NCBI GenBank assembly: GCA_964187785.1
Contig: OZ076409.1
Coordinates: 67,830,001 to 67,894,000, forward strand
Length of the DNA: 64,000 nt
Direction: 5' to 3'
From: Amphiscolops sp. MND2022
Lineage: Eukaryota
The notes beneath the pieces are model-generated. The model ran no database searches, was not told the origin of the DNA, and saw only the letters and a list, made by a program, of their open reading frames with translations. Of the stretch, positions 9,913 to 36,296 are shown one piece after another (positions within the stretch are counted from its first letter, which is position 1; the number at the start of each line of letters is the position of its first letter). Made by a program: the position numbers and the translations under genes.

Positions 9913-12900
9913 TGACCCCGACGTGATTCAAAATACCAAATCTGAAAACGAATAACTTTCTTCAATTTTAAATATTCGTGTCCTATATCTCTTTTCTTTT
10001 CTGCTTTTCAGAAGAAATAAGAAAAAAGTGTATGGAAAAGAACAAAAAAGAGACAAAAGTATAAAATAGGGTAACGCAACGAGAAGAAAATGAGACAGTT
10101 TTGGAACCCGAAGATTGATAACAGAAGATCATTAAAATTAAACCAGAATAATGGCCAGAAATAGAATCCATACCCAATTAGCCATAACACCAAAATGCTG
10201 AACACCATGGAATTGGGATCCGGAGACAACACTACAACTTCAACATCATCTCAGCTAGAACCAAAACACGCACCTGTAAGCAGAAACATAATGATCCCAC
10301 CTCCATTCTACCGCACAATCCCGACTGTTTGGTTTCGACAGATAGCATCCCAGTTCGTCTCAGCTGTAATTATCAACGACACAACCAAATATCACCAAAT
10401 CCTCGCAGCAACTCCAGAAGACGTCGTAGCCAACTTACCAATAAAAATTGAAGACTACAGCAACCTCAAAGATAGCATCACTCAAGTCTACCAGTAGTCA
10501 GAAACAGGGCTCATTGAAGAAGTATTAGGAACAATTTCACTGGATGGACAAAAGTCCTCAGTTTGCCTCTTGCGCAACCAGCGCAGGATTTTTGAATTTC
10601 ATCTGACAAGGGACAACGATGTAACCAAACACCGCCTTATCCAAGCCATGCCTATCTCAAACGCGTTCATCACTTTCCGCACATTTGGACCTGCCATCCG
10701 ACAAATTCGCCAAACTAGTCGACGCCATATACAGCTACTCAAAGGACACCTTTCAGGAAAACCCACACGTTTACGCTACACAGGAACTCTCGTCATGCAC
10801 GCCAGCCGCAGCCAAAGCAAAGGAACTGCTCAACCGACAACACCTTTCAGCCATTCTAACCCGGACAACGACCCAAAATTTGCCGCTTTCACTTGTTTTT
10901 CGCTTACTCCGCCAAACGATGTAAGACCTGGTGTAAGTGGCATGGACCAAATCCCACACACATCGAACCGTCATCTTGCGCACAACCCCTGCCGCACGTG
11001 GAAATGAATAGCCCAACTCGTGTGCGCGGCAACGATTTAGGATCCCATATGCATCCGCCTTGCCGCTAAAATCGACTCACGGAAAACTAGTTTCAGTGAA
11101 TCTATGGTATCAATAATCAAATCAACGCTCGTCAGCACCGAATACGCCACGCCGACAACAACGAACCTCGAAAAAGTAAACGGTGACCGTATCAAAGTTT
11201 ACGGAAAATTGACCCTCACAATCGCCATACCCTGCCTCCGACGCAACTACAACTTCACCTTCACATTCTACGACTGGATTTCTTGAAGGACAAAGACATG
11301 AACGTCAACTGCCGCAACCTAACAGTAACCGACAACGTAACCAAATTCATTTCAACACGCAACGAATCACCCGCACAACCAAGTCACAGCGCTGTTCTAG
11401 CCGTTTCTCTGGACATGTCTCGAATAATCGACACAGCTCTCAGAAAGATAATGAAACAGCTTTCATCAATTTTCGAAGACGCAGATTTCAACACGCCATG
11501 TACTTACAATACCACGCATCGCATTGCCATTTCGACTCAACCTGATTTTGGTACGCCTAGAAGGTGTTTCCCTGAAAAACTATCTATCGCCAAATCATCT
11601 TTCGACGAAATGCAACGCTTAAGAATCATTCGACCATGGAAAAGCCCAAACGCATGGCCTCTGCATTTGGTACCGGAAAAAAACCGGAGACAGAAGACCA
11701 TGTAGAGACTACCGCGCACTCAACCAAATCACAGTTCGCGATTCGTACCCACTGTCGCAGGTTTCATCGTTCGCACTCCACGACAAACATGTCTTCAGCA
11801 AGCTCGACATAATCAAAGCTTATCACCAAATACCCATGCACTCCGACAACATTGAGAAGACAGCCATTACCACACCATTTGGACTCTTTGAGTTTCTTCA
11901 CATGCCTTTCGGACTCAAAAACGCCAGTAAAACTTTCCAACGTTTCATCAACAATATCACCCACGGATTGCCAGATGTGTTCGCCTACGCCGATGATATA
12001 CTCGTTGCCAGCAACAATTTGGTTGATCACATCAACGCACTCACAGAACTCTTTACCCGCCTCGAGAAGTTTGGACTACGCATTAACTTTACAATATGCC
12101 AACGGATTTAATACTATATAGACTTTTTAGGATACTTCTTCATCACTTTATAGAAAACTCAACACTCTCCCTCACTACAGATGCCTCTGATACAGCAGTG
12201 GGAGCCGCCTTACACGAGGTAACAGACAACAGCAGCCGCCTTACTGCATTTTTCTCCCGCGGACTCACTGCCTGGATGAAATTACAGCACATTTGATGAG
12301 GTACTCCTCGATATCTTCGCAGCAACACTAAAGTTCAAACATCTGATTGACGAACGCCATACCGTTGTTTTCACAAACCACAAACCCATCACCTGTTCAG
12401 TTCTGCCATGCAAGAACAACACCAACACCCCTCGACAGTCTCGACATTTTTCTCTACTAGCAGAATACATTGACGAAATTCAACATATATCAGGATCAAC
12501 GAATGTTGTAGCCGACTGCCTTTCTCGACCACCAACCGACGACACCATCATTAACCGTAGCATCAGCGTCAACGGTTTTCACCGACAACTATTCTCTATC
12601 AAAATTTGCCAGCCTTCAGGACACGTCATTTCAACAACAGATGTCAGAACAATACCAACATGGAACACAGATGATGAACATTGGAACCACGACTCTCACT
12701 TGTGACAAAAGCATTCCTCTGCCCTTATTCTGTGCCGTTTTCCAATCTTCACCCAAATCCAAAACCTTTGTCGCTGCAACCGGAAATCAACGTCACGTAT
12801 GATCTTCGCCCGCTCCACTTAGCCCAATGCCCAACGCACTGTCAAAGAATCGTGCCACAACTGCCTCACTTGCCAACAGATAAATTCAATCGCCACGTAC

Positions 12901-16950: not shown

Positions 16951-18082
16951 GAGAATTATGTACTTTCTATGATAGAAAATACAAAAAAACATTCAAAGGA
17001 AAATTACCAGTCTGGAAAATTGTGGTTTGATACGACTACACCGGGAGTTCGAAAAATAGTTCAGACTGAATTTGCCCAGTAAAGCACTAGAACGACTGTT
17101 GGAATAGCATTTGGACATTTCCGACAAGTTTAGAGATTCTTCTGAAGTCTAGTGGCAGTTTTCTTCAAGAAACGTTCCCGTACGATATGATGAATATTGA
17201 TTTTATTCCATAGTTCCATAAAAACTAAGAACAGTCTAGTGAAATAAATACTTCATAACTTCTCAGCAAGTATTTTAAAATCATATTAGTTGTTCAAGCA
17301 AATATATTGATTTTCTTAAAGTTTCGATTTCAGGGTCTATGCATTTTTCACCTAGAATTTGAGAACTAAATCTGGTAACTCTGATTGTACGGTAGCCATA
17401 TGATCTTTCAATTTTTCTACATGAACAGATGAAGTGCTCGTCAAAAAACAAGTCTTCGCGATTGTATAGTGACAGAGGTAATCAGTGTTTGTTCTCTGAT
17501 GGGTATAATGTAACATCCACCAACCTTGTGGCAGAACACCTTCCAGAAATTTACCAAAAGTTCGAAGTACCGCACAAAACGAAAATGGCCGATTGGCAGG
17601 TGCTTGAAACTAGTCTGGAAGACAAATAAGCAAAAAAGCACCCACCAGCCACGGAAGAGACAATTAACAACCCGAGCAAACCCTAAAGAGTCCGACAGTG
17701 ATGACGGCAACAGAAATGGCAAATCACTCTATTACGCCAAAAACCCAAAATCTGCAGTGTCTGCTATATCGGGTATGCTGTATCACGCAACTCAAAGTCT
17801 CGGTGAGACTTTAACTCCATTTTTTATGGCTGCAATTTTAGTCAACAGTGCATTATTTCAGGTATTCGGCAATATTAGATCCTGTATTTTTGATATATTT
17901 GACGAATAAAATGTATTTCAGCTAATTGCTTTTTGGACCTCGGGAGTATGTAGGAAGTCGCGGAAATATTAGGATTACGTGCTTGTGGGACGGGCCCAGA
18001 CTTTGAGAATGCCGGCACGTCGTCTCGAAGCTCTAAATGAGGAGTCTCCTCGACGTTAGAAAAATCCCCCTAGGAGACAACT

Positions 18083-20032
18083 TGTGGAATTTTTAGATTT
18101 TGGCGTTTTAGAAAGATCCCATCATTTTTGCGCGAAGTACATACGGTAGGCAGAACTATGTTAATCATGTTTTAGACCGCCGGAGTAGTGAAAACAGCTG
18201 AACAGGCTGACAATAGCATTCTTCGATATGGCTTACTTGGCAAACTAGGTATTTACTTAGTAAACGATAGTTCTTCGGTAGAATTTAAAGTTAGTGAGTG
18301 ACGTCAGCAATGAAATGACTCGAATCGGCTGCGTCAGAGTCAATCTCTCAGAGCGAATTTTACTAAGTCCCACTTAAGAGCAAAAATATTCTAAGACACG
18401 ATATTTGGAAACCGAGGGGGACCAAATCGAAAAACCCCCCAGTCAGGTTTTTCTCAAAGACTATTTATCGTAGAGACCTGAAATTTGGCACACGTATACC
18501 TGAGCTGTTATGCTACTGATCTATAAAAACGGAACCGAGCCGAGACCCCCCAGTCCCGGGCTATTAGCACCGGAAGCGACCTATGTCGACCCCCCTACGA
18601 ATTCGTCGGCGAAGCACGGAATAAGTTGTATTATATATAGAATTGATAGCCCATATGATATTAGGCAGTTTGTGCACATTTTCGGAACCCTACGACGCGT
18701 GTAGGAGGAGCACGGGCCCTATGTAAATAAACCCCGAATGTTATGTAAATAGCCGCCGGATGACCCGAGAATAATGAAACTTACCTAAGATGTTCACCTA
18801 GTAACCCTAAGTAATATAAATGAAAGATACGTTAATCGGTCCACCACGCGCGGAGTAATGTTTGTTTAAGGCACGCGGGACCGGACGCACGGGCCCGACC
18901 GATAAACGATGTTGACTTTGGCTTGTAATATCTCAAACAAACCGGAATGATTAATGTAGTCGATTATTAACGTGAATGAAACCGTATTTATAACCCAGGC
19001 GGGGGTAACCGCCTTAAGTAAACAAACGATACGCACATCATGTAACTCGAAGACCATCGACCCTAGGACGATATAACTTGGCATGTAGCAACTCTGGATG
19101 AGGACGAATAACCTCAAGGTCACTGATGGATCTCAAGGTCATTGTGGATGCAACCCATGAAAATATAGAGAAACTTACGATAAAACATGTAAATCAGCGC
19201 CGTTTGCGTGATAATTTATGCATTTCAGTCAGGCGGAACGATTCGCGACGTATTGCACCAGGATGATAGAAAAGTACCCCGTACGCGTAGAGAACATGTA
19301 AACCATGTAGTTGAAGGTCATTAAACGATTGGCTCGATATTGGAAATATCTTGGTTGACTTGAATTATTATTGAAATGTGAACTTTGCACAACCATTGTT
19401 GAACTATTTGTCGTTGGCGGCGAAGAATGTCTGGCCGAAACATAACTAGGGAGCTGCCATGCCATAAAAGGAATGGAACTACATGAAGTTAAAAGCATGC
19501 AAATAAAAGAGCGACATCGGTATAACAAAAATGCGGCCGATGAATAAATATCCCAGGGAGGGAAAAAGAGACCGAATTGACTCAGAAGAACGATTACGAA
19601 GCTAAGAGTAAGTTGAGCCGCGTGCGGGCAAGAAACCTACTCGAGATCGAATTTGACTTAACTGCTTTGTGAGAGCAGCGAATAAGTCACAAGTCCGGGA
19701 CTTGGAAATCTTTGAGTGAATCGTGATTCTGGCACAGTCTTGTCGAGTTATTGTATTTAATTCATTCACCTGCTGTGCTATTGTTATTGCTTGGTTGAGT
19801 AGTTACGTACTGTGGAAATCTTCGACTTGTATTATCCAGATAATTCCTGAATTATAGTATTAATTGCAAGTAACTTTTCTATAGTGTTTTGGAGTCGAAA
19901 CTTGAGCACCGGAGAGACTTTGTGAAAAGAAAACGCGATACGTGGACGAAACTTACTCACTAAAAACTAAACCTTTCTGTTAGAATCGAGCCTTTGGGAT
20001 TTCTCTCCGACCCTCTAGCAAAAATTTCTACA
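18083..20032 (+). repeat. 5' LTR (1950 bp)
   Basis: tgtggaatttt...aaaatttctaca with inverted termini. It differs from the 3' LTR at only about four substitutions and one C indel that I could spot by eye. Confidence 0.95.
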
Positions 20033-20033
20033 G

Positions 20034-20050
20034 TGGCGCTCCTGGGTGGG
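20034..20050 (+). promoter_or_regulatory. Primer-binding site, tRNA-Asn-like
   Basis: tggcgctcctgggtggg lies 1 nt after the LTR. Its reverse complement cccacccaggagcgCCA resembles the 3' end of animal tRNA-Asn (cccacccagggacgCCA). Confidence 0.75.
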
Positions 20051-20232
20051 CAATTTTCGTAGTTCTGTATCGCTGTTATTTTGGAATTGTTTTACTGGGA
20101 CTTAGCTGTAATCCCTTGACGACACGATCAAAACAAGCACATTATCTGATGAGGTTGATCGGCTGAGAACGTTTTCGTACAACAGAACAGAGAGGTTTCT
20201 AGTTACTAGTTGCCTGAAGTAACGCTTTGGGT

Positions 20233-22722
20233 ATGGAAGGCGAACAACGACTGGCAATAATGGAGGCTGTTGCCCAAGGGGTGATACAGGGCCTCAACGG
20301 GAATGAGAATCGGCTGTTTGGCAATGGAGCAATCAGACCTGACAGCTTTCCCTCACAGAACTATCCAGATTGGTCCCAATGGAAAACGCACTTTTACAGA
20401 GTTGGTAGAGCCAACGGATGGACTGAGTTGCAAGGTCTGCAAGCTGTGCCTGTGTGCTTGATTGGGTACGCATTGGACGAGTACAACGCTGCGCCTCGAG
20501 AACTGAGAGAGCAAGTTGATGGGGAAGATGCACCTACGTTAGCTGCCCTATTCAATCACATGGGAAGAGAAATGGGAATGATGCGTAATGACCGTTTGGG
20601 AAAAGCAGAGTTCAGAAACCTTCGACAGCGACCAGAGGAAACTCTGAGAGAATTTGGTCGACGAGTGAGAAACATTGGAAAGATTGCCTACTCGGAGAAG
20701 GACCCCAACACGAGAGACGAGTTGTTTCGGGAGAAGTTTCTCGAGGGTTTGAGCGATGTACAACTGGAAGTTCAGTTGTTGAAAGAAAACCCACAAACAT
20801 TTGGGGATCTAGTGAACAGGGCCGTTGACTTGGAAGTTATTGCTCGAACAACACGTGGCCGTTCACGGAATGAACAAGAGAGGTACGAATTGTTTGGAAG
20901 GCAGCAAGACTCAAGTTGTGAGTTCCGTGGTTATTCGCCCGAACCGTGGAAAGAGGGATTACATCAGCTCACAAGAAGAATGGACCAGATGACACAGATG
21001 ATGATGACGTTTTTGGAAACTATGTCGACAACGGCGAGGCCTGAGAAGCGGGCTGGGGTGACGGACCCATGGAGAGACGATGTCATCCCTGTAGCGAGCG
21101 AGCGGAAGTTCCACGGGGACGGTTGTCTTGTAACTGATAAATGCCCTGTTTGCGAGCATTATGGACATTCTCCCCAACAATGCCCCAAACGGCAGGTGGT
21201 GGTCGAAGACGCTTCTGAGATGCATGGGAAGTTGACAAGGGAGAAAGCCGCACAAATTGTTGAGAGGGCCGGCTTAGCAATAGAAAGAAAGGCGTTGAAC
21301 GCTGTGCGTGTGGTTGACTGTTCTGGTTGTAACAGCGGTGTTTTTGTGAAAGCACGAATTGAGGGGAAAGAGATGGATGTTCTGCTAGATACAGGAGCTG
21401 GCGTGAACGTGGTGGACTTAAGTACGTTGGAATCGCTCAGACTCGATGACGTGGTCGAAGAATTTCGTGGAGAGTTGCGGTCTGTAGACGGTCAACCAGT
21501 GACGACTAAAGGATTAACCCGACTGAATTTGCAGTTGGGACCCTTGAAGGAGCAAGAAGAGTTTGTGGTGGTTCCCCACTGCGAGCCATCAGTTATTCTA
21601 GGCTTGAACTTCCTGAAGAAGCACAAATTTATTGTCCATTTTGGGAAAAACGAACTGTCCACACCCCCGCTATCCTCAGAACCGCTGAAAATGAGGGTAG
21701 TTGCTTCGAGCGAAGACGAGAGCAGGTGTTACCAGCGGAGCACGGACAACAGCCGTGAAAGCGTGGAGACTGAACTCTCACAGTCGGCACCACCCATTCA
21801 GCACTTGAGCGTTCAAGATAGCATGAATCCAAGATGGGACTCCGGAGAGAAACCGCCAGCAGGGCGATGGGACGCAATGATTATTGACTCTGAGGCTGAA
21901 TTCCGCATGGTATCGACGACAGAGACTAAGTACAGGAGTGATGACAGCCGATGCGCCATCGTTACTACCCTGAAACCTCATAAGATGACCCTTTTTGGCG
22001 ATGATGACGTCGACGGAGGACGCGGAAACCTGAAGTACAAAGAGATTGAGGGAGACCTATTTTCGTCCAAAGGTTGTTTGGCTCACTGTGTTTCGGCAGA
22101 TTTCCACATGGGGACCGGAGTTGCCAAGCAAGTCAAAATGAGGTATCCCACTACATATCCGAAGGACGTCAACCACAAGAAACAGCCAGTTTTTGCGCAG
22201 TGGATTGAAGGAGAACATCGCTACGTGTATCACCTGGTCACCAAACAACGATACTTCGAGAAACCGACCTACGAATCCGTGAAAACGTCGCTGCAACAGA
22301 TGAGAACCCACGCGGAGTGGTCTGGGGTCGACAGAATAAGCCTGCCAAGGATTGGCTGCGGTTTGGATCAACTGAATTGGAGTGAAATGAGAAGTCTAAT
22401 TAAAGACGTCTTCAAAGGGAGTGACGTAGCTATTACAGTGTATGTATGCCCTCAGCAGAACCCGACTCCCAATTGCGAGACTGACGTCGAAGAAGTTGGA
22501 AGCAGAAGGGGAGAACGCCCTTCGCCGACACCTTCCAGCTCGGGGTACATTGACGACTGGTTCGACAGGAACCAACAATGGGAACTGGGAAAGTTCAAGG
22601 AGCAAGGGTTGCGGTCTCTCCGACACGAGAGGAGCGAGAATGCAGGATTGTGGTCAGTCAAGCGCGGAGCGGCCCAGCCAGATGTCACTGCACCGTACAA
22701 ACGTGAGAAGATGATGGCTTAA
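20233..22722 (+). CDS. Retrotransposon polyprotein: Gag capsid + CCHC zinc knuckle + aspartic protease + TARG1/OARD1 (Poa1p-like) macrodomain, 829 aa from the first ATG
   Basis: Uninterrupted ORF. Capsid-like WSQWKTHF...ANGW and LRQRPEETLREF; CPVCEHYGHSPQQC (21142-21183); LLDTGA protease active site (Asp at 21388) with ILGLNFL. Macrodomain GDLF...LAHCVSADFHMGTGVA...YHLVTK...KPTYE...SLPRIGCGLDQLNW...ITVY (22030-22443). Confidence 0.93.
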   Translation: MEGEQRLAIMEAVAQGVIQGLNGNENRLFGNGAIRPDSFPSQNYPDWSQWKTHFYRVGRANGWTELQGLQAVPVCLIGYALDEYNAAPRELREQVDGEDAPTLAALFNHMGREMGMMRNDRLGKAEFRNLRQRPEETLREFGRRVRNIGKIAYSEKDPNTRDELFREKFLEGLSDVQLEVQLLKENPQTFGDLVNRAVDLEVIARTTRGRSRNEQERYELFGRQQDSSCEFRGYSPEPWKEGLHQLTRRMDQMTQMMMTFLETMSTTARPEKRAGVTDPWRDDVIPVASERKFHGDGCLVTDKCPVCEHYGHSPQQCPKRQVVVEDASEMHGKLTREKAAQIVERAGLAIERKALNAVRVVDCSGCNSGVFVKARIEGKEMDVLLDTGAGVNVVDLSTLESLRLDDVVEEFRGELRSVDGQPVTTKGLTRLNLQLGPLKEQEEFVVVPHCEPSVILGLNFLKKHKFIVHFGKNELSTPPLSSEPLKMRVVASSEDESRCYQRSTDNSRESVETELSQSAPPIQHLSVQDSMNPRWDSGEKPPAGRWDAMIIDSEAEFRMVSTTETKYRSDDSRCAIVTTLKPHKMTLFGDDDVDGGRGNLKYKEIEGDLFSSKGCLAHCVSADFHMGTGVAKQVKMRYPTTYPKDVNHKKQPVFAQWIEGEHRYVYHLVTKQRYFEKPTYESVKTSLQQMRTHAEWSGVDRISLPRIGCGLDQLNWSEMRSLIKDVFKGSDVAITVYVCPQQNPTPNCETDVEEVGSRRGERPSPTPSSSGYIDDWFDRNQQWELGKFKEQGLRSLRHERSENAGLWSVKRGAAQPDVTAPYKREKMMA

Positions 22723-23779
22723 ACAACAACTATCACTTCGGAAGATTGACTTGTCTTTGATTAGATATATTTGACCCGAGACTTCGATTCGGCTTGATGT
22801 CTTTATGACCCATAGTGAAACTTTCCTTAGTCTCACGTTTTTTTTTGTTTTTGTTTTTTTTTTTTAAATATAAATCAGGTAACGCCCCACCCGTGAACAC
22901 CTGAATCCCCTTTGACGTTGTTTCGAAGCGAGCAGAAGGGAAGAAAGAATTTTGAATTAGCAGTGCTAGATATTAGAATTTTGGGAATTACAAAAAAATG
23001 GCGCCTCGAAACAATGTCACTCCCCCCAATGCTCAAGGCAGGTTCTTGCGTATAATTTTCACGACCCAACGCGACCCGCCCCTGAGGTTTCCCCCTTACA
23101 AAGAAAATATGCCTCCTTGTTGAATTGTGACCCAGCCCTTTGTTTTACTCGATCTGAGACAAACTCTTCCATCAAAGCGCTGTTTCGCCTTGACAATTTT
23201 TTTTCAAATTATTTCCGCCTAACCAACCCCCCTGACACTACTACCCCGATGTTACGACGCGGTGCTAAACCGTCGTTTGTATCTGGCGAAGAATCGTAGT
23301 ACCCCCAGACTTGCTTTGATACATAGTTTTGTGCAGTACTTTTTTCTGTTATATACTTTGATCCCTGCAACCTTCTCTTTAAGGGCGCCTAGAAGACACA
23401 ACTGAACCCTGAATTGTACTCGTTTCGTACGCAATAAAGGGACCTGCTCAAGTTAGGAGAGCTATGAATACTGTATTCCTATTTTAATGAAGGGAGTCAA
23501 TGATGACGGATGATGACTTTGAATAAAATTAAATTGATCGTTACCCGCGCCAGCTTGGTGGGTTATAGATAGTCCGAAAGTTTTCCTGGCCAATAAAAGG
23601 TGGCACTTCAACATGATAGAATGGATGTACAAATTAGCAGTACCGAAATTCCGAGCTCGCGAAAGTTGACTTGTTCACAGAGTAAATTTGCGGAGTAAAC
23701 AAAGACTTCAACGGCGAAAGATCCGCATTAGATAAATTTTGTTCTTTGGTGAGCGGCAGCAAATCTATACAATTTACGA

Positions 23780-24073
23780 ATGACTTATATTGGGCTTTAC
23801 TGGTCCTGGGACTGCGAGGATTTCGACGAGGTAGTTTTTGTTGAGCGGATTTTTTTTGATTACGGGGAAGAACCAATGGTCGCCCGAATTCACTGTTCTA
23901 ACCGACCCAGAATAAGGAACGTGGAAGTCGCGCCGGGCACCAGAAGGTGGGCCACGTTACTGGAGATGCTCAGAGAAATTTTCGCCGGTGCGTGGAATTT
24001 CCATCCTGTAGATCGGGAGAGGGTCAGAGTGTTAATTGATTTCATGGTAGGATCGAGGAAGTCGCGGGGATAA
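23780..24073 (+). CDS. Putative small accessory ORF (97 aa) in the 3' internal region of the LTR element
   Basis: ATG-initiated, sense to the element, protein-like composition; no recognisable domain. Confidence 0.3.
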   Translation: MTYIGLYWSWDCEDFDEVVFVERIFFDYGEEPMVARIHCSNRPRIRNVEVAPGTRRWATLLEMLREIFAGAWNFHPVDRERVRVLIDFMVGSRKSRG

Positions 24074-24436
24074 CTCATAAATTCATAACTTAAACAATTT
24101 TTCAATTTAACCCACGTCGTTATATTATAAACCTAAACTAGATTTACTGGCTCGGTTGCCCACCCCAAAAATTACTTTGATGATTTATTTTAATTGAGAC
24201 TTCGGTGTTTTGCTGATTATATGATGTTTAAATCGCCTAATTTATTGCTGTTGTTTGATGTTATACTAGTTCTCGAATACTGTACATATTATCAACGATC
24301 GGTGTTATTTTTTTTATCCGGAAATCATTTTGACCAATCCCGAACCCTACCCCCATATTTATGTTCATGTTCAACCTAGAACCCACGATTCAGCCAACGC
24401 TAATATCGCTAAGTTTATTCGGGAGAATAAAAGTGC

Positions 24437-24448
24437 AGAAGGGAAGAG
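24437..24448 (+). promoter_or_regulatory. Polypurine tract
   Basis: agaagggaagag immediately before the 3' LTR TG. Confidence 0.85.
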
Positions 24449-26399
24449 TGTGGAATTTTTAGATTTTGGCGTTTTAGAAAGATCCCATCATTTTTGCGCG
24501 AAGTACATACGGTAGGCAGAACTATGTTAATCATGTTTTAGACCGCCGGAGTAGTGAAAACAGCTGAACAGGCTGACAATAGCATTCTTCGATATGGCTT
24601 ACTTGGCAAACTAGGTATTTACTTAGTAAACGATAGTTCTTCGGTAGAATTTAAAGTTAGTGAGTGACGTCAGCAATGAAATGACTCGAATCGGCTGCGT
24701 CAGAGTCAATCTCTCAGAGCGAATTTTACTAAGTCCCACTTAAGAGCAAAAATATTCTAAGACACGATATTTGGAAACCGAGGGGGACCAAATCGAAAAA
24801 CCCCCCCAGTCAGGTTTTTCTCAAAGACTATTTATCGTAGAGACCTGAAATTTGGCACACGTATACCTGAGCTGTTATGCTACTGATCTATAAAAACGGA
24901 ACCGAGCCGAGACCCCCCAGTCCCGGGCTATTAGCACCGGAAGCGACCTATGTCGACCCCCCTACGAATTCGTCGGCGAAGCACGGAATAAGTTGTATTA
25001 TATATATAATTGATAGCCCATATGATATTAGGCAGTTTGTGCACATTTTCGGAACCCTACGACGCGTGTAGGAGGAGCACGGGCCCTATGTAAATAAACC
25101 CCGAATGTTATGTAAATAGCCGCCGGATGACCCGAGAATAATGAAACTTACCTAAGATGTTCACCTAGTAACCCTAAGTAATATACATGAAAGATACATT
25201 AATCGGTCCACCACGCGCGGAGTAATGTTTGTTTAAGGCACGCGGGACCGGACGCACGGGCCCGACCGATAAACGATGTTGACTTTGGCTTGTAATATCT
25301 CAAACAAACCGGAATGATTAATGTAGTCGATTATTAACGTGAATGAAACCGTATTTATAACCCAGGCGGGGGTAACCGCCTTAAGTAAACAAACGATACG
25401 CACATCATGTAACTCGAAGACCATCGACCCTAGGACGATATAACTTGGCATGTAGCAACTCTGGATGAGGACGAATAACCTCAAGGTCACTGATGGATCT
25501 CAAGGTCATTGTGGATGCAACCCATGAAAATATAGAGAAACTTACGATAAAACATGTAAATCAGCGCCGTTTGCGTGATAATTTATGCATTTCAGTCAGG
25601 CGGAACGATTCGCGACGTATTGCACCAGGATGATAGAAAAGTACCCCGTACGCGTAGAGAACATGTAAACCATGTAGTTGAAGGTCATTAAACGATTGGC
25701 TCGATATTGGAAATATCTTGGTTGACTTGAATTATTATTGAAATGTGAACTTTGCACAACCATTGTTGAACTATTTGTCGTTGGCGGCGAAGAATGTCTG
25801 GCCGAAACATAACTAGGGAGCTGCCATGCCATAAAAGGAATGGAACTACATGAAGTTAAAAGCATGCAAATAAAAGAGCGACATCGGTATAACAAAAATG
25901 CGGCCGATGAATAAATATCCCAGGGAGGGAAAAAGAGACCGAATTGACTCAGAAGAACGATTACGAAGCTAAGAGTAAGTTGAGCCGCGTGCGGGCAAGA
26001 AACCTACTCGAGATCGAATTTGACTTAACTGCTTTGTGAGAGCAGCGAATAAGTCACAAGTCCGGGACTTGGAAATCTTTGAGTGAATCGTGATTCTGGC
26101 ACAGTCTTGTCGAGTTATTGTATTTAATTCATTCACCTGCTGTGCTATTGTTATTGCTTGGTTGAGTAGTTACGTACTGTGGAAATCTTCGACTTGTATT
26201 ATCCAGATAATTCCTGAATTATAGTATTAATTGCAAGTAACTTTTCTATAGTGTTTTGGAGTCGAAACTTGAGCACCGGAGAGACTTTGTGAAAAGAATA
26301 CGCGATACGTGGACGAAACTTACTCACTAAAAACTAAACCTTTCTGTTAGAATCGAGCCTTTGGGATTTCTCTCCGACCCTCTAGCAAAAATTTCTACA
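24449..26399 (+). repeat. 3' LTR (1951 bp)
   Basis: Near-identical copy of 18083-20032, followed by the TSD caact. Confidence 0.95.
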
Positions 26400-27729
26400 C
26401 AACTTTTGGGACAAGCCTTATGTCTAGGGTTGTAGTAAGGCAATGGTCTCCTGTCAAGGCAACAAAGGCATTATCCCAGCTCTATGTGTACAGCTTTAGC
26501 TTTACGTTACATAACTTCATTCAGTAATGTGAATTGAATGCTCAACATTTGGCACAGATTTTATTAAATTTTGGGTACACTTTGGCTTGCTTCTGTCCGA
26601 ATTTCTTAATTCAAATAACATTCATCATTCACAGAAGCTTTGAAAATTTTTTGGAATCCAAGGAAAATAAACTGACATTCAGAAAACAATGAGCCAAAAT
26701 TGGGTGCAAAAAGGTGGTATGATTTATAATTTTTGATGGGAAATGGGAAAATTACCAAATGTGAGTGATACAATTGAAACCAAATTTTCTGGGAAACAAT
26801 TCGATTTAGCTTGAAAGTCGATTTTGATCGAATGCTCGGAAAGCGTCAACTCTTGCAGTTCTTAGTTCCGAATTCTTTGGTGCCCGAGATAAAACAAAGA
26901 ATGTTCAATTAGTTACGTTTTGATGTTTATTCGGAAGTTTCATGTTCGAACACAAAGATATCGGTATGTGTTTAGACCTTAAATAAACTCGGCTCTTTCG
27001 CAGAAAGTGCGGTAAGTTCACAACAAAGGTTTAGTTCCTATAGTTTTGTGATATCTCTGAAATGCTATTATTTACTTGGCAGTATTCAGGAAACCTTTCA
27101 TGATTTGCTGCTGAACCTACTGTTTGATGAAATTTTGTTTCTTTCTGAACCATAAAATGATCCAATAATGAAGTTTCATACTTAGTTCGTAAGCAAGTAG
27201 CCATCTAAAAGAATTCAAGTCAAGAGAACATTAGGAACTTGAGAGGTCAAGTACTTTGGTGGTGAAACTCGCGTTGTTCGAATATTTTCCAACTTATGAT
27301 TTCATTCAAAAATATTTAGTTTTGTTGCCAACTCGAACTATCCACCGTTTAGTATCCACTCCAAACAGAATTTTTGGCATCACGCTCTAACCAATCTTTC
27401 TTCCAGATTAATAATTGCTCTTATTGCAATAATCTGGTAAAATGGAAATTGGGTGTAATTTTATCGTTTGATGAAGCTCATAAACTTTGTCTTGGAGTAC
27501 CAATAAAACACTCGTTAAAACCTCAAGGATCTCTTTTACAAAACACAGTTATTCCTTAATTGAAATTGCTTGAACTGTTTATTGCCAAGTTTAGATTTCA
27601 CCGACATTTCAAAACAAAGCAGCTCCAGTCAACTAAAAACTGCAACTAAAGTCACCTCATGTGAGTAATTACATCAGTAGAAAAATTCAAGAAAAAATCG
27701 CGAAGACAATGCGATAGAATTGGATAGAA

Positions 27730-28501
27730 TGTAACGGCAAGCAGTTATCGGTCGCTTAACACGTTAACAGAGGTGGAGGAACCTGCAGGAATGGTTGAAT
27801 CGCTCGGGACAGGCGCCCATCGCCACAGATCCATTTTGCCTCCAGGGGTGAAATACGTCCCGGGGCCGCGGGTGCTTCGACGAATACTGTCCAACCGGTC
27901 CTAGTCTTTGATTGCTAATAGTAACGGGCATCTTTCTGACTCTCTAAAGACCACCGCTTAACTAGCATATAAAAACAATGCCAAGAATAAGGTAAATTTC
28001 CAGTTCCAGGGTGACATGTGAATAAGATCTAAAATTGGGGAATAAGATCTAAACTAGCGCTAGCGCTACTGAATACAGCCAAAATCACTGAAAACACATG
28101 AAAACAGGCACGAATATGGCAAACCACACAGCTACAAGCTGGGGCGCAGGGACTCCAAGCACCAAACAAGGATCTTTAGGCGAAAAGACTCATTTTTACG
28201 GTTTCCGCTACATAGGGTAGCATAATGCTGAAAATCGATAAAACCCGTGTTAGCACCTCAAAAAGAGTCTATTTTCGGATGTTCTTGCCGTCTCTGGCTT
28301 CTGTCATGGCGGCGCGCCCGTGTTTTTGCTCGTTCTTGCTCTTTGTTGTCGAAGTACCTGCCAATTTCGTGGAAACAGCGAAAAGAGCAATCACATGCTC
28401 AGTGCCACGTCACACATCGGATTAGAATTTTTGACAAAATTTCTGAACATGTCAAAGTTGCAAAATCGGTTGAAATTGCTGTACCAGAGCTTGCCGTTGC
28501 A
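27730..28501 (-). repeat. 3' LTR of the minus-strand element (772 bp)
   Basis: tgtaacggcaagc...gcttgccgttgca; copy of 35525-36296. Confidence 0.92.
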
Positions 28502-29623
28502 TCACTCCCCGGGCTTTATGCATGATGTCCCTGTCATGCGGAGAGGCTGGCATTGAATACATCGCCACATCATGAGTGCAATCCACGGGGGTCTCAAACT
28601 GGTGATGTTGCAACGGTCCAGTGGCACTGTCATCTTTTGCTGATTGGGCAACCATGAGGTCTTGCTTCTAGCCATCCAGAGAACCTGCATCGTCCAGAAA
28701 CTGTTGAAACAGAACTAGCTCGAGAGCTAGAAAGCCAGTACTCAAAAATGCACCTTGAAATTGATCAAATCCAAGATTCCATACATCAATCAAAAAAGCA
28801 CCACTTTTTTAGCACGAGTTTTCTGCAAAAGTCTGAATAGGATCCTGCTAGCACTTTTATTTTTGGACGTCTAAAATTTCTTTTACGGAGCGCTCACGCT
28901 CCAAAACGCACGTGGTTCTCATCAAAACATCTTTTCCACGGCAATAAAATTTCAGTTTGCAGCACAGTTAAAAGTTCTTTTCGCTAAAACTTCTTTTCAG
29001 CAGTAAAACCACTGTTTAAAAGGAAGACAAGCTGTTTCTTTGATACTTTTTTTAACAGTTCGGTTTGGTTTGGGCAACACGCACTGATGTGCAGCTCCAT
29101 ACCTGTATAGAGTTCAGTAGCATCTGTCAAGGAGCGCATCAGAAGCAAACTACGAACTGCTCGGAAGAGTAAGCACTGGAGTAAAGCAGACAGGTAGATC
29201 AAATCCTGCCATTTGCAGATCAGGAGCGCGCGCGCTCCTTATTTCTCCGGATATCACATTGGAATCTGGAGGAATTTTCTGGGAATCTTGGAAAAAAAAT
29301 AACACCTTTCGGGCGTAGCAATACATGTAGAGTTTTTGGGATATTTATTGAATTAACAGAAGTATTTGAATTCAAACATCTCAAATAAAACTAAAACAAA
29401 AATGTCGCGACGTACGTTTACATGACTACTAAAATTACGAAACAAAGTTGCAGAAAAAACTGCTCCAACAAGAACATCACGCTGCAAGGTATCCATTACC
29501 AAACGTAGTGATATCCTCCGGGCGTTATCCAATTGAGTGGATGAGTGTAGGGGTGTTTGTCTTCAACTGAGGCTCCCCGGGCCTTAGTTGACTCCCCGGG
29601 CCTTAGTCGTTGAGCACCCTCTT

Positions 29624-31000
29624 TCACATGAGGATAGTGAGGAATGGACAAAACTGAATGCCTGACATAAAATTGCAGCAAGGAAAATTAAGCGTTGACG
29701 GCACCTCCTCCCCCTTTGAAAAGAAGTGGAGTGTGGTTTGGACTGGATAGACATCACCATCCAATAGCAGCAGGACGTGCAACAAGCATGAAGCATCAGG
29801 AAATCCGATAAAGAAAACTGTGGAGACTGGGTCTGTCTCAAGACTGGAATAGTTGTTCGGAGGACGGCCACGCCTATGTCCCTTCGGTCGGAGCAACCAT
29901 GGTAGAACTTGGCGTGGTGGACGGCCACGGCGACGTCCATCATAAAGGGACAAGAGAACTTTTTGCCATGAGTGCTCATAGTCTGTGCGCGGTGGTCGAC
30001 CACGTCTATGACCAGTTGGTCGAGTTTTAGCTGAACCACCAGGCAACCAATTGATAAAGACTGGCGGGTCCACCTGAATAAAATCCTGTAGTCCACGTTT
30101 AGCAGAATGTGGCTCCAAGGAGTCTTTCAGCAAATTCGGTAGCAACTTCGTAGTTGATATTAGGGACTTTGTTCCAGGGAAGTGAGAGTTGCTTAAAGAA
30201 TCCTGCGATAAGGAAATGGAGGATGAGATAGATATTCGTTCATTCTTCGTATCACTTGAGTAGAGGTTGCGCTCGCGCAACCCATTATCACCGACGTGAT
30301 ATTCAGGCAAAGTGTCAGCAATACTCATGGTTGTGGAATCCAAAGATATTGGGTCCAAACCCATGTCATTTGTTGGCTGTGTCATTGGTTTTGCTTCGGC
30401 GTCGTTTGAAATGTTGATAGTGGCACTTCTGAGGTGTATTTTCACATCTGCATTTATCGACTCCATTTGTGCTAGCACTCGTGCTAACAATTTCTCCATA
30501 CGTATCTCACTTCGTACCAACGAGATTGATATTTCATCCATCTGCTGCTCCAAGGCCTTTAATTGTTGGTCCTGTTTCTGATAAAACTGAATACTGGCTT
30601 CATGGAGGGAAGATCTTTTAGACGACGATACTAAACTAGGACTGGGAGTCCTTATGCTCCTCTCCGGCTCGGTATCCTGAGAGTTAGATGGCATTGAGTC
30701 TAGAAAATTGGAGACAGGCTTGAAACTATCCTCCAAAGGCCAATCTTCCAAGTTCAAATCCTATAACTTCGTCGATCGGTCATGTTCATCTACCATTTGG
30801 GATTCATTTTGAGGTTGAACATCATGAACATCCATTGGTTGTGCTGAACTGACAGTCCTTCCCCCTTTAAAAAAGGAACGGAGGCGGTGGAAGACTTTCC
30901 AACGTTTCATTTCAGCTTTACAGGCTTCCAACTGCTTGACTAGAACCACCAGTGTACCCAAGTTCAGTGTCAGGGTCAAAGTCAAGAGAATTTCTAGCAA
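29624..31000 (-). CDS. Unknown element-borne protein (coiled coil, Ser-rich, three GxRRGRPP AT-hook-like motifs), split by one in-frame TAG at 30761-30763
   Basis: The 79-aa ORF (31000-30761) and the 377-aa ORF (30757-29624) are in the same frame: ...RSTKL*DLNLEDW.... Heptad-like QDQQLKALEQQMDEISISLVRSEIRMEKLL; RRGRPP occurs three times at 29858-30013. Confidence 0.55.
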
Positions 31001-31949
31001 TCACAGCGTGCTGAGAATTGCTCAACTCTTTGCACGCTGCTCTGTGGGCCAGAACATTTTGCTCTAGAGCAAATTGCTGCAGCCAAGTTGGATAGTGCGC
31101 ACCAAACAGACAGTCGAGCGGTTTGTCGACCTCTCAACCTCAAGAGATTTGGGTATTTTGCAATTACCCAAAAGAGTTCTCTGCAAATTTGGCGTAAAAT
31201 TCGGTGTTGATGCTACTCGATACAGCAGAATAACACCAAAATGAGGCACCAGAGTGTTCAAAAAGGTGTCACACTTGGGCAATCCGGTCAAATTTTTCGT
31301 CACTAGGAAGTTGCTCCTCCCAAAGTCTTGTGATTTTGGCTAAGTCGGAACACTCAGGGTCTCTTTTGGATATCGAAAACCCTGCTCAAGGTAACTCCTA
31401 GAGATCTTCGTTTGGAAAAATGTAGTCCAGAACGCGTCGCAGGCACTTAAAATTGCTGCCTTGAACTGTTCAGGATCAAATTTCAAAGTTCCAGAGGAGT
31501 CCAAAATTTATGACCCCTGCCGGCAATTTTTTTGAACCGTGGGATTTGCCTCGTTTGCACCCAGGAACGTCTACTGGGTCCGTTCCGTTGGAAAATGGAG
31601 GCTTTTTGGGTTTGCCTCCTGTACAGCGGAAGTATTTAAGGTTTACACTGATAGTTTTTCTGGCGTTTTTTGGAATTTTGTTCAAGACGTGTGTCTGAAC
31701 TGAGTCAAAGTCAGTTTTATCAATCGTACTGGGTAAAAAATGACACAGCACGTTTCGTCAGCCGCACAAGTCAGAAAAATAACCTACCGTAGCTGATGAT
31801 TGCCTCCAGCTCCAAGCTAGAGCCTTTTTCAACGATTTTTGGATTTTTCAACTGTTTTCGAAAATCACTCAAATGGCTTGTACAAGTGCTGGAAACGTGG
31901 TATTGGGCTCAAAGTTGATCACGCGATCACACGTACAGCCAGCTACACT

Positions 31950-33750
31950 ACAAAAACAATCAATGAGAATTCAGACCACTGGGCAAGATTTAGATCTGAT
32001 ACTGACGTTCCGGATCACCGTGTCTCGATTAATACGATTTTTCACATGCAATCAGAGACTCTCGTCCACAGTGCTGAGCTCTCGAGCTCACTTTTTTCAG
32101 CAACGGTGCACCAAGTGACACTAATAGGAATAGTCCAGGGCAATGTTATCCCAACTTTCCAATAAGGTGCGCCGACAGTTCCAAAAAATGATCTAATTCG
32201 TTACGATACACAGGATATCACGACTTCAAGTAACAAAATGCTCTGATCCAGCAAGGCAGCCCACTCGATACTGATCAAATATTACACGCACAGCAATGCA
32301 CGAACTACTGGGAGTTCAAACTAGGGGTTTCAACAGGTTTCCAGCACGTAGAAATGGCTTTTTTCCCACTTTCCCAGTTTTCGTCTCGGTGAAACCTCAA
32401 ACTGAAACAATGACCATGCACGTCCGAGAAGAGTCGAAATTAGTTCCAAGGGTTGTAGCGTAATGGAAGGTATACAGCACTTCCGAATTGATGCACTGAC
32501 CCAAAAAGTGAGTCCAGAATCGGGGTATTAGGATCCAGTCACAGGTCAGAAGTTTTCCAGATATTTTTTGGGTTTTTCAGCTTCACTTGAAAAAAAAACT
32601 CCAGAGGCTAGCGCTAACGGTAGAAACGCAGGATCGTCTTCAAAATCAACCACACAAGCTCACGTTTGCTGAGGTACAAGGGAGTACTAGTTGATTTGTG
32701 CTGAGGTGACTAGGTGAAGTTTCAACACAGTACAGACGTTCGATATCACTGTGTTCCAATATGTACTGTTTTTCACGTGTCAACCCAGATTCTGGCGAAC
32801 TGCAAAGAGCGCTCACGCTCGTTATTTCGGCAACAATACGATAAACTTGCACTGGTTACGATAGTGGGCAGCAATTTGGCCCCACTCTTTGAATAAGGTG
32901 TTCAGGCAATCCCACAAGACTTCGTAGAATTCACCTTCTTGCGCACCTTCTTGTGCAGTTTGTTTTAGTCAATTTCTCAACAGATACAGTACCAATTGAC
33001 CCCAAACTTGACAGGCGCTGCCAGTAGGCACCAACCACGCTGTTAGAATAGTGAAACAGACGCTGGTAGGCTTGCAGGGGGTCTCCTCAAGGATTTGGCC
33101 CTCTGCTCGTCTCGGTGAGGACTTAAGAAAATTTATGTTTTTTCAACGTCCAAGATTTTCCAACACACGTTCTAAGGCTCGTAGGCTGTTCAAATTTGCA
33201 CAGCGCTTTCCCACAAGCACACTGGGCCAGAGAATCAATCTGGTTTAGGGCAAAAAGTCTCCAGTCACCCACAGGAATAATTTCAAAGAATTTTTGGATT
33301 TTCCAAAAATCGCACTATAACACTCAAGAGGCTCGTGTGTGCGCTGGAAGCGCTGTAGCAAGCCCAAAATTGACCAGCAGATCTTAAGTACACGTAGCGT
33401 TACGAAAATGAACACAGAATTGAGCTGCACCCCTTCTACACAGTTCCACCTAGGTACAGACGTGCGGTACCACTATGTACCAAAAGACACCGTTTTTCAC
33501 GTCTTTTTCAAGATTGCGGTCCACTGGAAGGAGCTAGCAAGCTCAAATTCTCTGCAGCAACGTAGGAACTAGCACAGGTTACAATGGTGGGCTGCAATAT
33601 AGCCCCACCCGTCGGCTAAGCTGCCCGGGTTACTCGGAAAAATTAAGAAAAAACTGCCTTTTTGCACACCTTTTTGGGTGCCACGTTTTTGCTATTTCCT
33701 CAACAAGTATCACACTGATCGGCACCAAACTTAGTAGTTTATGCCAGTAG
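31950..33750. repeat. About 2.5-3 degenerate tandem units of ~725-730 bp inside the LTR element
   Basis: tac(t/a)gacgt...cac..tgt...gtttttcac motif at 32000, 32731 and 33455; matching downstream blocks at ~32115, ~32845 and ~33568. Confidence 0.6.
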
Positions 33751-35491
33751 GCACCTACAATGCCACTAAAAGGGTCGAATTGAAGCGCGAGCGCTTATTT
33801 GAGGTTTCGACCCACTACGTACGTTGTACACGAAAAAACACTGTTTTTGACGACTTTTTTCACAAATTGACCAAGAGGATCACCTCAGAAAGTGATACGG
33901 CGGGCAAAATGGGACCAACGTGTTGCCCCACTATCCGTAGCACTGGGATAAACCCTCAATTGGTTGTGCCCGTTAGGTATAAGGCACTGACAGTCCTGCA
34001 GTTTTGGATTTTTTCGGTCCTCTTACGCTTCTCTGAAGTCGAAACGTCAGAGAGCTTTTCTCGACTTTGGTGACCGATACGCTCACCAAATTTTCGGCAC
34101 TAACGTTAATTTTGGTGGTGGTTACGAAAAAGCAACCACTTTTTGGCTAGGGTTCAGGAATCGATGACCCGACCCTAGCTCAGAGACAGTCCGGTTTTGT
34201 GGAAAATTGATCGAATTCAGTGCGTTTTTCCACTTTTCTCAGCACTGAATGGGAGTTTTTGCACGCGGTTTTCACCACAATGCGTTATTGTTACTACAAA
34301 AACAGAAAATGAGAGCGCGCAGGCTCCCAGGTCTCGAAAACACTGAGTGCCCCAGAGGTTTTAATGATGCACTCTGGCACTCCTGAAACTGGCCAAAAAT
34401 CGAGGTTTTTCGACCTGTTCTCACCAAGAAAACGTTACAAACTCTCTTAAATCCTTTTTTCGGTACTGTGGAGTGTGCCCCAAACTAATAGCAGCACGGA
34501 AGAGGCAATTACATCACAATCCAGCACTCTCCCAGTGGCATTTCATAGTGGTTTTTTGCCAATTTTGCCGAAAACCGGGTTTTTTCATGCAAAATGTGTT
34601 TCAAAAAGGTCTCCAACGGCCTTTCTGGTTGTCGTTACTTTATGTAGCATAACCCTCGAGGTTTTGGGCTGCTTTCTATTCATTTTTGCAACTGCTGTGG
34701 CTAATACTTCGAGAGCTCGCGCTCGTACCAAGAAAAGTACTCAAAAATGCCAAAAATCACGTTTTTGCGACTTTTGCACTAAAAATTGCGTTTTTTTCAC
34801 TGAAAATAGGTGCAAAAGCACACACTCAGTTGCAACAGGGTAAAATTAGCATGCACAAATGATTCCCCGTCAAAAAATACACAATCTAAAAACTTTTTAA
34901 TACCATACTCCAAAATACCGATTCTTGCGGAATGAGGGGTGGTACCTTCGCCGTCTTTTTTCTCAACAACCAGACCAGCCAGAGAGAAACGGTTTGGACC
35001 GTCGGCAACGTCAGTGTTTGTTCTAGCTTTCCATCAAAAACCATGCTTCTAGCACGTCTCCACGGGAAATGGGAAAGGAGAGTCGGGAACACTCGTTTCA
35101 GCTCATCTATCGGTCAGATGGAACATGGCGCATCCATCAACTGAATACCTCGTACATAGCCATAAACGCTGAAATGAGCTCTAAAACACCTGTTACAACA
35201 TGCGTAACGGCTTTCTAGTGGTTCGCTAAGCCATTACAAAGGTACCCGCTGATGGAAACGTGCAATTTTAGACGATACCTGTCAACAAATACCTGTTATC
35301 AAAACATACCATAGGTATTCGGAAAAATCCCCCGAAATACAAGAAAAATACCAAAATATAACGTCATATCATCTAAAAAATTTGGAAAAACTCTGGGTAA
35401 ACGTCTCCTTCCAGAGTCCAATCGTTCTTGGCGTCCAATACCAGGGGGTCGGAAATTTCAAAACCATATAATAGGGCAGTAATCGGAAGCG

Positions 35492-35509
35492 ATCCCTCTG
35501 TGGTCGCCA
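35492..35509 (-). promoter_or_regulatory. Primer-binding site, tRNA-Arg-like
   Basis: Plus strand atccctctgtggtcgCCA resembles the 3' end of animal tRNA-Arg(TCG); it lies 15 nt from the LTR edge. Confidence 0.65.
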
Positions 35510-35524
35510 AAAAATGAGGTCTCA

Positions 35525-36296
35525 TGTAACGGCAAGCAGTTATCGGTCGCTTAACACGTTAACAGAGGTGGAGGAACCTGCAGGAATGGTTGAATCGCTC
35601 GGGACAGGCGCCCATCGCCACAGATCCATTTTGCCTCCAGGGGTGAAATACGTCCCGGGGCCGCGGGTGCTTCGACGAATACTGTCCAACCGGTCCTAGT
35701 CTTTGATTGCTAATAGTAACGGGCATCTTTCTGACTCTCTAAAGACCACCGCTTAACTAGCATATCAAAACAATGCCAAGAATAAGGTAAATTTCCAGTT
35801 CCAGGGTGACATGTGAATAAGATCTAAAATTGGGGAATAAGATCTAAACTAGCGCTAGCGCTACTGAATACAGCCAAAATCACTGAAAACACATGAAAAC
35901 AGGCACGAATATGGCAAACCACACAGCTACAAGCTGGGGCGCAGGGACTCCAAGCACCAAACAAGGATCTTTAGGCGAAAAGACTCATTTTTACGGTTTC
36001 CGCTACATAGGGTAGCATAATGCTGAAAATCGATAAAACCCGTGTTAGCACCTCAAAAAGAGTCTATTTTCGGATGTTCTTGCCGTCTCTGGCTTCTGTC
36101 ATGGCGGCGCGCCCGTGTTTTTGCTCGTTCTTGCTCTTTGTTGTCGAAGTACCTGCCAATTTCGTGGAAACAGCGAAAAGAGCAATCACATGCTCAGTGC
36201 CACGTCACACATCGGATTAGAATTTTTGACAAAATTTCTGAACATGTCAAAGTTGCAAAATCGGTTGATATTGCTGTACCAGAGCTTGCCGTTACA
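35525..36296 (-). repeat. 5' LTR of the minus-strand element (772 bp)
   Basis: tgtaacggcaagc...gcttgccgttaca, a perfect 13-bp terminal inverted repeat. Confidence 0.92.

Follow-up and report, generated by a model that had tools for sequence, protein, structure and literature searches.

Introduction

Long terminal repeat (LTR) retrotransposons making Gag while lacking a polymerase of their own have been described from plants. TR-GAG elements are LTR elements that encode Gag, or Gag plus an aspartic protease, and no reverse transcriptase (RT), RNase H or integrase (PMC6022998). In wheat, RLG_Cereba and RLG_Quinta form an autonomous/non-autonomous pair with the primer binding site (PBS), the LTR ends and part of the LTR in common; their Gags are homologous as proteins but hardly as DNA, Quinta encodes Gag with an extra domain, and a mutualism of the two has been proposed (PMC11302176). 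Here we analyse a 64,000-nt stretch of contig OZ076409.1 from Amphiscolops sp. MND2022 (GCA_964187785.1; hereafter “the window”, from whose first letter all positions are counted), which carries at 18083..26399 an LTR element whose only long open reading frame (ORF) joins Gag and an aspartic protease in frame to a macrodomain of the TARG1 type. The element is very likely a copy of a Gag-encoding satellite, old but still active, of a Ty3/Gypsy family with an env-like ORF. What appears to be new, judging from the papers searched, is a Pol-less Gag-protease satellite, maintained under selection, that carries a captured TARG1-type domain beside a helper without any macrodomain.

Like a TR-GAG, the element has an LTR pair, a target site duplication (TSD), a PBS, a polypurine tract (PPT), Gag and protease, and is devoid of RT, RNase H and integrase; env is missing as well. 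A plain TR-GAG has no coding domain beyond Gag and protease; because the present element adds an in-frame macrodomain and a conserved small ORF, we regard it as a TR-GAG variant. It further differs from the TR-GAGs as described (PMC6022998) in residing in an animal-type genome and in having an identified helper. Cereba and Quinta are the closest described helper-satellite system. As presented there (PMC11302176), Quinta lacks a protease and no function is known for DUF1, its extra domain, whereas the extra domain here is a TARG1-type hydrolase by its sequence, is absent from the helper and can be traced to another Gypsy clade.

TARG1-type enzymes take ADP-ribose off Asp and Glu residues (PMC8120803), with Lys84 and Asp125 as the catalytic dyad of TARG1 itself (PMC9411070), and TARG1-like proteins reverse ADP-ribose linked to thymine in DNA and to uracil in RNA (PMC13036486). 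There is precedent for macrodomains in retroelements. Fish epsilon-like endogenous retroviruses (ERVs) with macro domain ORFs are mentioned, with reference to Basta et al. 2009, in an account whose passage on them describes no Pol-less satellites (PMC4977317); they are retroviruses, not Gypsy elements. Orchid Gypsy elements carry an AlkB m6A demethylase with activity shown in vitro (PMC9289625), which is likewise an eraser of a nucleic-acid mark within an LTR retrotransposon, although its chemistry is different and it is encoded in a separate ORF.

Results

The long ORF is open from stop to stop between 20218 and 22722 and, from the ATG at 20233 to the stop at 22722 (20233..22722, plus strand), encodes a single protein of 829 aa. 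A capsid region (20233..20862), recognised by its similarity to the Gag of the helper described below, is followed by the CCHC zinc knuckle of the nucleocapsid (C-x2-C-x4-H-x4-C, 21142..21183), by the aspartic protease (21346..21621, with LDTGA at 21385 and a Pfam Asp_protease_2 match at E 4.9e-11) and by the macrodomain (about 22030..22446). This layout bears out a first-pass annotation made from the letters alone. No RT, RNase H or integrase was found in the element, as tblastn with four full Pol proteins returned the protease and the macrodomain only; the helper Pol, used as a query against this one copy of the family, likewise gave no match of its RT, RNase H or integrase. The same annotation had seen no trace of these enzymes between the stop at 22722 and the 3′ LTR. 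That part of its description holds, but the region is not empty, for it contains an ORF of 97 aa (23780..24073, plus strand) that is conserved among copies and has no family assigned.

The 1.07-Gb assembly was searched with 150 candidates scored per search, so that the family counts given here are lower bounds. At least 111 macrodomain matches belong to the family, and at least 114 capsid (Gag) matches reach 82% identity; among the 114 Gag matches listed, 107 have the macrodomain 1.2-2.7 kb downstream and seven lack it. Forty copies, selected for long open frames and high macrodomain similarity, were fetched and compared together with that of the window (41 in all). Each of the 40 has a single ORF of 828-878 aa and paired LTRs, which are 96-100% identical although covered only in part in some copies. 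With three Pol proteins that carry macrodomains as queries, tblastn again detected the protease and the macrodomain only, so that no copy shows remnants of RT, RNase H or integrase. Perfect 5-bp TSDs flank 21 of the 22 copies in which both ends were located (the remaining 18 of the 40, with ends not located, were skipped). The protease DTG is present in 41/41 copies and the CCHC knuckle is intact in 37/41 when scored with a regular expression. P0014, a database entry, is a divergent member whose macrodomain is 76% identical and which keeps both the layout and the dyad. This is a young family of about 110 non-autonomous copies. A one-off internal deletion of an ordinary element was rejected in view of this copy number and of the distance to autonomous families, the nearest autonomous Gag being 52-53% identical and the protease 32-34%.

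In the PDB, the macrodomain is matched best by structures of human TARG1/C6orf130 (4J5S and 2EEE, E 1.6e-31 to 3.7e-31), while the Pfam Macro match is weak (16.9 bits vs a cutoff of 22 bits). A structure model built from a 50-row alignment, which replaced a poor single-sequence fold (pLDDT 48), reached pLDDT 95 and matched TARG1 4J5S best, with a TM score of 0.86, ahead of DarG. The domain is thus of the TARG1/OARD1 type by sequence and by modelled fold, as had been proposed. On alignment to TARG1, the equivalent of Lys84 lies at 22243-22245 and that of Asp125 at 22366-22368; this dyad is kept in 41/41 copies. LVTK, KPTY and the terminal LD are also invariant in all 41, and adjoining motif positions vary. 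The domain differs from TARG1 in being part of a Gag-protease polyprotein and in that the segment after its second helix has been remodelled in a Gypsy-clade-specific manner. By sequence and model, it looks like a working ADP-ribose-removing enzyme.

Mean pairwise dN/dS among the 41 copies is lowest in the capsid (0.12), about equal in the macrodomain (0.24) and the protease (0.25), and higher in the tail (0.35) and the linker (0.51). The macrodomain is under purifying selection and shows no neutral decay among the copies compared, the outcome that the first-pass annotation had set against its own proposal. Its constraint equals that of the protease (Fisher p 0.45) and is stronger than that of the linker (p 0.0005). 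Changes shared by at least two copies, which are not independent events, number 43.5 nonsynonymous to 56.5 synonymous vs 329:100 sites (p 2e-12), while changes confined to single copies are near neutral (p 0.085). Such a pattern is expected if selection acts on replicating lineages and drift sets in after insertion. Since a protein of a non-autonomous element is kept under selection, it must favour its own RNA, which suggests that it acts in or near the particle.

A search with the capsid led to an autonomous family with a gag of 347 aa, a pol of 1420 aa in the Ty3/Gypsy order of protease, RT, RNase H and integrase (PR-RT-RH-IN), and an env-like ORF of 749 aa. Its RT has 25 matches at an identity of 92% or higher, for 15 of which the frame spans at least 1407 aa, and TTTAAAC occurs in its gag/pol overlap. 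The 749-aa ORF, a candidate envelope of the F type, has hydrophobic ends, matches Baculo_F with 21 bits over its first 520 aa, below the cutoff of 24.1, and is 24% identical to ORF3 of other families. In the three copies examined by tblastn and with a hidden Markov model (HMM), the macrodomain is absent.

The LTR of this family is 88-89% identical to that of the window over its full length and 99% identical in its last 200 nt; the leader behind the PBS is near-identical, and the 57 nt that precede the 3′ LTR (24392..24448 in the window, ending in the PPT at 24437..24448) are 91% identical. By contrast with these regions, the capsid is 51% and the protease 32% identical, and capsid four-fold sites match at 5/27, the silent sites of Gag being saturated. 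Helper and satellite LTRs intermix in the LTR tree, where H095 of the helper and L067 of the satellite are sisters (SH-aLRT 98), and along the satellite LTRs identity to the helper changes in blocks, from 0.53 to 1.00. We take this to mean that LTRs have kept being exchanged since an old split; from the pattern of the LTRs, co-packaging would be implied. An identical PBS, matching LTR termini and a conserved part of the LTR, by which the wheat partners were paired (PMC11302176), are all present here. The partner whose existence had been predicted is at hand, with common LTR, leader and PPT region, and this Gypsy family with its env-like ORF is very likely the helper. As to whether it is the sole partner, the comparison covered eight loci of the next-nearest RT families, which have at most about 30 nt in common at the LTR end and PBS, and 20 macro-carrying loci, which have no DNA in common with the satellite, in a genome that holds 1,072 PBS-type matches. 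The macro-carrying autonomous families (L031-L050) were rejected as helpers, as they show no DNA similarity and a Gag identity of about 29%. Separately, three PBS-sharing elements (L116, L123 and L124) have LTRs 83-87% identical to the middle of the window LTR and little or no Gag match nearby, and form part of a wider LTR-sharing network.

In the trees, the capsid and the macrodomain of the satellite group with different relatives. In the capsid tree, the satellite is the sister of the helper plus a second satellite family (99.5/100), and the protease tree places it on the helper side with weaker support. The nearest macrodomains, at 43-53% identity, are those in the Pols of another env-carrying Gypsy clade (L031, L033, L035 and L039), whose RT-RH region is 44% identical to that of the helper; the grouping has SH-aLRT values of 91, 99.8 and 88 in three taxon sets. 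Within the remodelled segment, [FY]P-x-x-Y, a motif picked after viewing the alignment, occurs in 7/8 domains of the L031-type clade, in 0/56 stand-alone proteins and in 0/4 macrodomains of the helper clade. Because of the tree grouping and the common remodelled segment, we consider capture by recombination between Gypsy clades the most likely origin of the macrodomain. A fresh capture from a host gene is not favoured. The candidate host TARG1 gene, a stand-alone ORF (L112; G000:C1:46433553-46433954, minus strand) with no retroelement domains nearby, is 47% identical and groups elsewhere in the tree, and stand-alone proteins lack the remodelled segment. By eye, an RH-IN bridge or an integrase tail seemed to have left remnants around the macrodomain, but these were not significant vs shuffles.

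Sister lineages of the helper (RT-RH 62-70% identical) bear diverged macrodomains, at the RH-IN junction in L104, L105, L107 and L108 and at the Pol start in L106 and L109-L111, for which reason the helper lineage has probably lost its own. Alternatively to recombination, the satellite may have arisen by truncation of a lost PR-macro-RT ancestor, since this domain order exists (L113; probably L131).

In this genome, TARG1-like domains ranging from canonical to strongly diverged occupy four Pol positions in Gypsy families (L113/L115, L114, L104-L111 and L031-L050). In public data, they occur in Gypsy Pols (P0111, P0129, P0148, P0221 and P0222) at the RH-IN junction, at the PR-RT junction and after the integrase. 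The domain type is thus common, and in all of these (L031, L033, L035, L113 and L114 among the in-genome ones) it comes with RT/integrase and at the dose of Pol; none is a Pol-less family. The first-pass suggestion that macrodomains might already be on record in retroelements is confirmed by these Pols and by the fish ERVs as mentioned in the citing account (PMC4977317). As to the Pol-less Gag-PR-Macro layout, which it had not recognised, a search of the open literature, without subscription journals and without Repbase, Dfam, GyDB or CDD, brought up neither such a family nor an account of TARG1 domains in Gypsy elements. The word “macro” is absent from the main text of an errantivirus survey, and the places viewed in its supplement gave species names only (PMC13524379).

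Outside the satellite family, no Pol-less Gag-PR-Macro element was confirmed, the close matches of the protein searches being of the satellite type only. P0082, with protease and macrodomain and no RT, was not accepted as an independent case, its relatives being insect Gypsy gene models with the macrodomain after the integrase. Two metagenome contigs (L131 and L135) carry a Gypsy element of another organism with Gag, a frameshift, protease, an acidic linker and a TARG1-like macrodomain. These two, out of 160 metagenome and viral loci, were not accepted as Pol-less, since the contig ends where RT would probably begin.

The second non-autonomous family of the same helper (L097-L102) has a Gag of 314-337 aa, 56-71% identical to that of the helper, and a frameshifted ORF of 384-541 aa without a Pfam match; it has no protease and no macrodomain. 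Its LTRs are up to 92% identical to the helper LTR, and its LTR pairs are young. Homologues of the 97-aa ORF are present in 39/40 fetched copies of the first satellite and at 5/6 loci of the second, and in none of the helper loci. This accessory ORF (97-101 aa in the window, L053, L084, L085 and L097-L101; 145 genomic matches) occurs as four or more alleles, at 100, 66, 33 and about 27% identity (dN/dS about 0.13 between the closest two); one allele is near-identical in both satellites, and the ORF has been swapped between them. It has no Pfam match and no Atlas match. About 1 kb upstream of the 3′ LTR, an antisense ORF of about 100 aa stands head-to-head with it in 29/40 copies (e.g. L056 and L084) and in L097-L101; it is absent from the copy in the window. 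Whether the small sense ORF is homologous to the antisense ORF of other copies was considered, and found no support (hhalign probability 0.6%). The spacer between the head-to-head ORFs (23621-23748 in the window) is conserved and is perhaps a bidirectional promoter.

Discussion

We propose that the Gag-PR-Macro polyprotein would nucleate particles on its own RNA and co-assemble with the Gag-Pol of the helper, and that the RNAs of satellite and helper would be co-packaged and recombine during reverse transcription. As the macrodomain is in frame with Gag, and not behind a -1 frameshift like the Pol of the helper, it would enter particles at capsid dose, and the protease would then cut it free; in alpharetroviruses, too, protease is a part of Gag. 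An active TARG1-type hydrolase could strip ADP-ribose from uracil in the RNA of the element, from thymine in its cDNA and from Asp and Glu in particle proteins, and these substrates of TARG1-type enzymes (Asp/Glu, T and U) all occur in a retroelement particle. The removal would benefit the RNA of the satellite itself, and a benefit tied to its own RNA would explain why selection maintains a protein of a non-autonomous element. The domain would have come, through recombination, from a Pol in a different Gypsy clade, the helper lineage having lost its own. For this mechanism as a whole, including an active eraser that acts to the benefit of its own RNA, we see the chances as evenly balanced. A more specific form, in which a helper without macrodomain shares its particles with a satellite that supplies a re-captured, active eraser against a host defence based on ADP-ribosylation, is put forward tentatively and is rather unlikely to hold in full.

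Several observations weigh against this proposal. The second satellite spreads without a macrodomain, and the helper also propagates without one; because of the second satellite, the domain cannot be required in cis. The suggestion of the first-pass annotation that it may be a counter-defence or helper module is qualified in this respect. The choice of 40 copies with open frames and high similarity biases against decay, a bias that the comparison of shared with singleton changes softens without removing. The PBS, the exact complement of a tRNA-Asn(GTT) 3′ end, is not specific to the helper; it is common to the whole clade, including families that are not partners. AU tests reject neither the other clade for the protease (p 0.17) nor a grouping of the macrodomain with those of the helper clade (p 0.33). 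Finally, helper-clade families with a strongly diverged macrodomain that lacks the MGxG loop are abundant (a 1610-aa family).

The macrodomain might instead bind ADP-ribose, poly-ADP-ribose (PAR) or RNA and steer the particle or the pre-integration complex, towards PARylated chromatin or else towards nucleoli or granules, with catalysis as a by-product. Many Pols bear the domain next to the integrase, at the RH-IN junction or after the integrase, positions that targeting domains such as chromodomains also occupy, and several successful families keep a diverged domain without canonical loops. The macrodomain of the satellite, however, is not attached to an integrase, and its Lys and Asp are invariant in every copy while adjoining motif positions vary; for the satellite, we regard a role in steering as doubtful.

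To a similar degree we doubt that the domain is a hydrolase with a housekeeping task unrelated to any dedicated host defence. Such a hydrolase would remove metabolites such as O-acetyl-ADP-ribose, or the ordinary marks of PARPs, such as damage-type ADP-ribosylation where cDNA is nicked or ends, that stand in the way of reverse transcription or integration. Stand-alone relatives of the domain are fused to DNA-repair domains (ligase, PNKP, UDG, XPG and BRCT), selection on it is plainly purifying and the counts show no sign of an arms race, all of which would suit such a task. Yet the domain has been captured repeatedly, in unrelated hosts and, within a single genome, at four Pol positions, which fits a recurring conflict at least equally well, and the candidate host TARG1 could supply a general function outside particles.

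That the domain is a passenger, left over from a macro-containing Pol and conserved only for folding and frame of the polyprotein, is already disfavoured and appears improbable: autonomous PR-macro-RT elements could have yielded Gag-PR-Macro by one truncation, and linker and tail are mildly constrained too, but the domain lies near the C-terminus, where truncation should cost nothing, and is nevertheless absent from just seven of the 114 Gag matches listed, its constraint matches that of the protease and exceeds that of the linker, and the divergent P0014 retains it with layout and dyad.

Selection on a protein of an element that does not copy itself indicates that the macrodomain acts in retrotransposition and is not a mere rider. 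If the proposed eraser were real, it would be a eukaryotic retroelement counterpart of DarG and of the macrodomains of RNA viruses, protecting retroelement RNA or cDNA, and the repeated capture of TARG1 across Gypsy lineages would mark an undescribed conflict between PARPs and retrotransposons, a hint that in animals mobile DNA is acted on by ADP-ribose tags. The helper-satellite mutualism proposed in wheat for the supply of Gag would be extended to a possible supply of an enzyme. The system makes it possible to assay whether LTR retroelements in animals are restricted by ADP-ribosylation, be it of RNA, of DNA or of particle proteins, with natural contrasts within one genome: a satellite with the domain, a satellite without it, a helper without it and autonomous families in which it is intact or diverged.

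Additional features of the window

The intactness of the element had been described correctly. The 5′ LTR (18083..20032, 1950 nt) and the 3′ LTR (24449..26399, 1951 nt), both with TG..CA ends and on the plus strand, are 99.7% identical (four substitutions and one indel apart), and direct sequence comparison finds the 5-bp TSD CAACT on both flanks (18078..18082 and 26400..26404). The PBS (20034..20051, plus strand) exactly complements the 3′ end of tRNA-Asn(GTT) plus CCA, the tRNA being taken from the same genome. In that genome, tRNA-Asn-like units form a large tandem array (G000:C7 from 47.639 Mb onward); the tRNA-Asn pattern has 386 matches genome-wide, and most of those listed lie in this array. 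Downstream of the long ORF, another ORF (22970-23299) does not keep its frame among copies.

A second LTR-like element lies at 27729-36296, with 770-nt repeats that are 99.7% identical and 7.8 kb apart. The Gag, Pol and Env queries used gave no match in it and a clean TSD was not seen; its sole ORF, of 378 aa, is on the minus strand. An assembly gap of 200 nt of N is located outside the element at 40969-41168, and fragments of RT and RNase H/integrase from other retroelements occur at 11674-12210 and 58693-60457.

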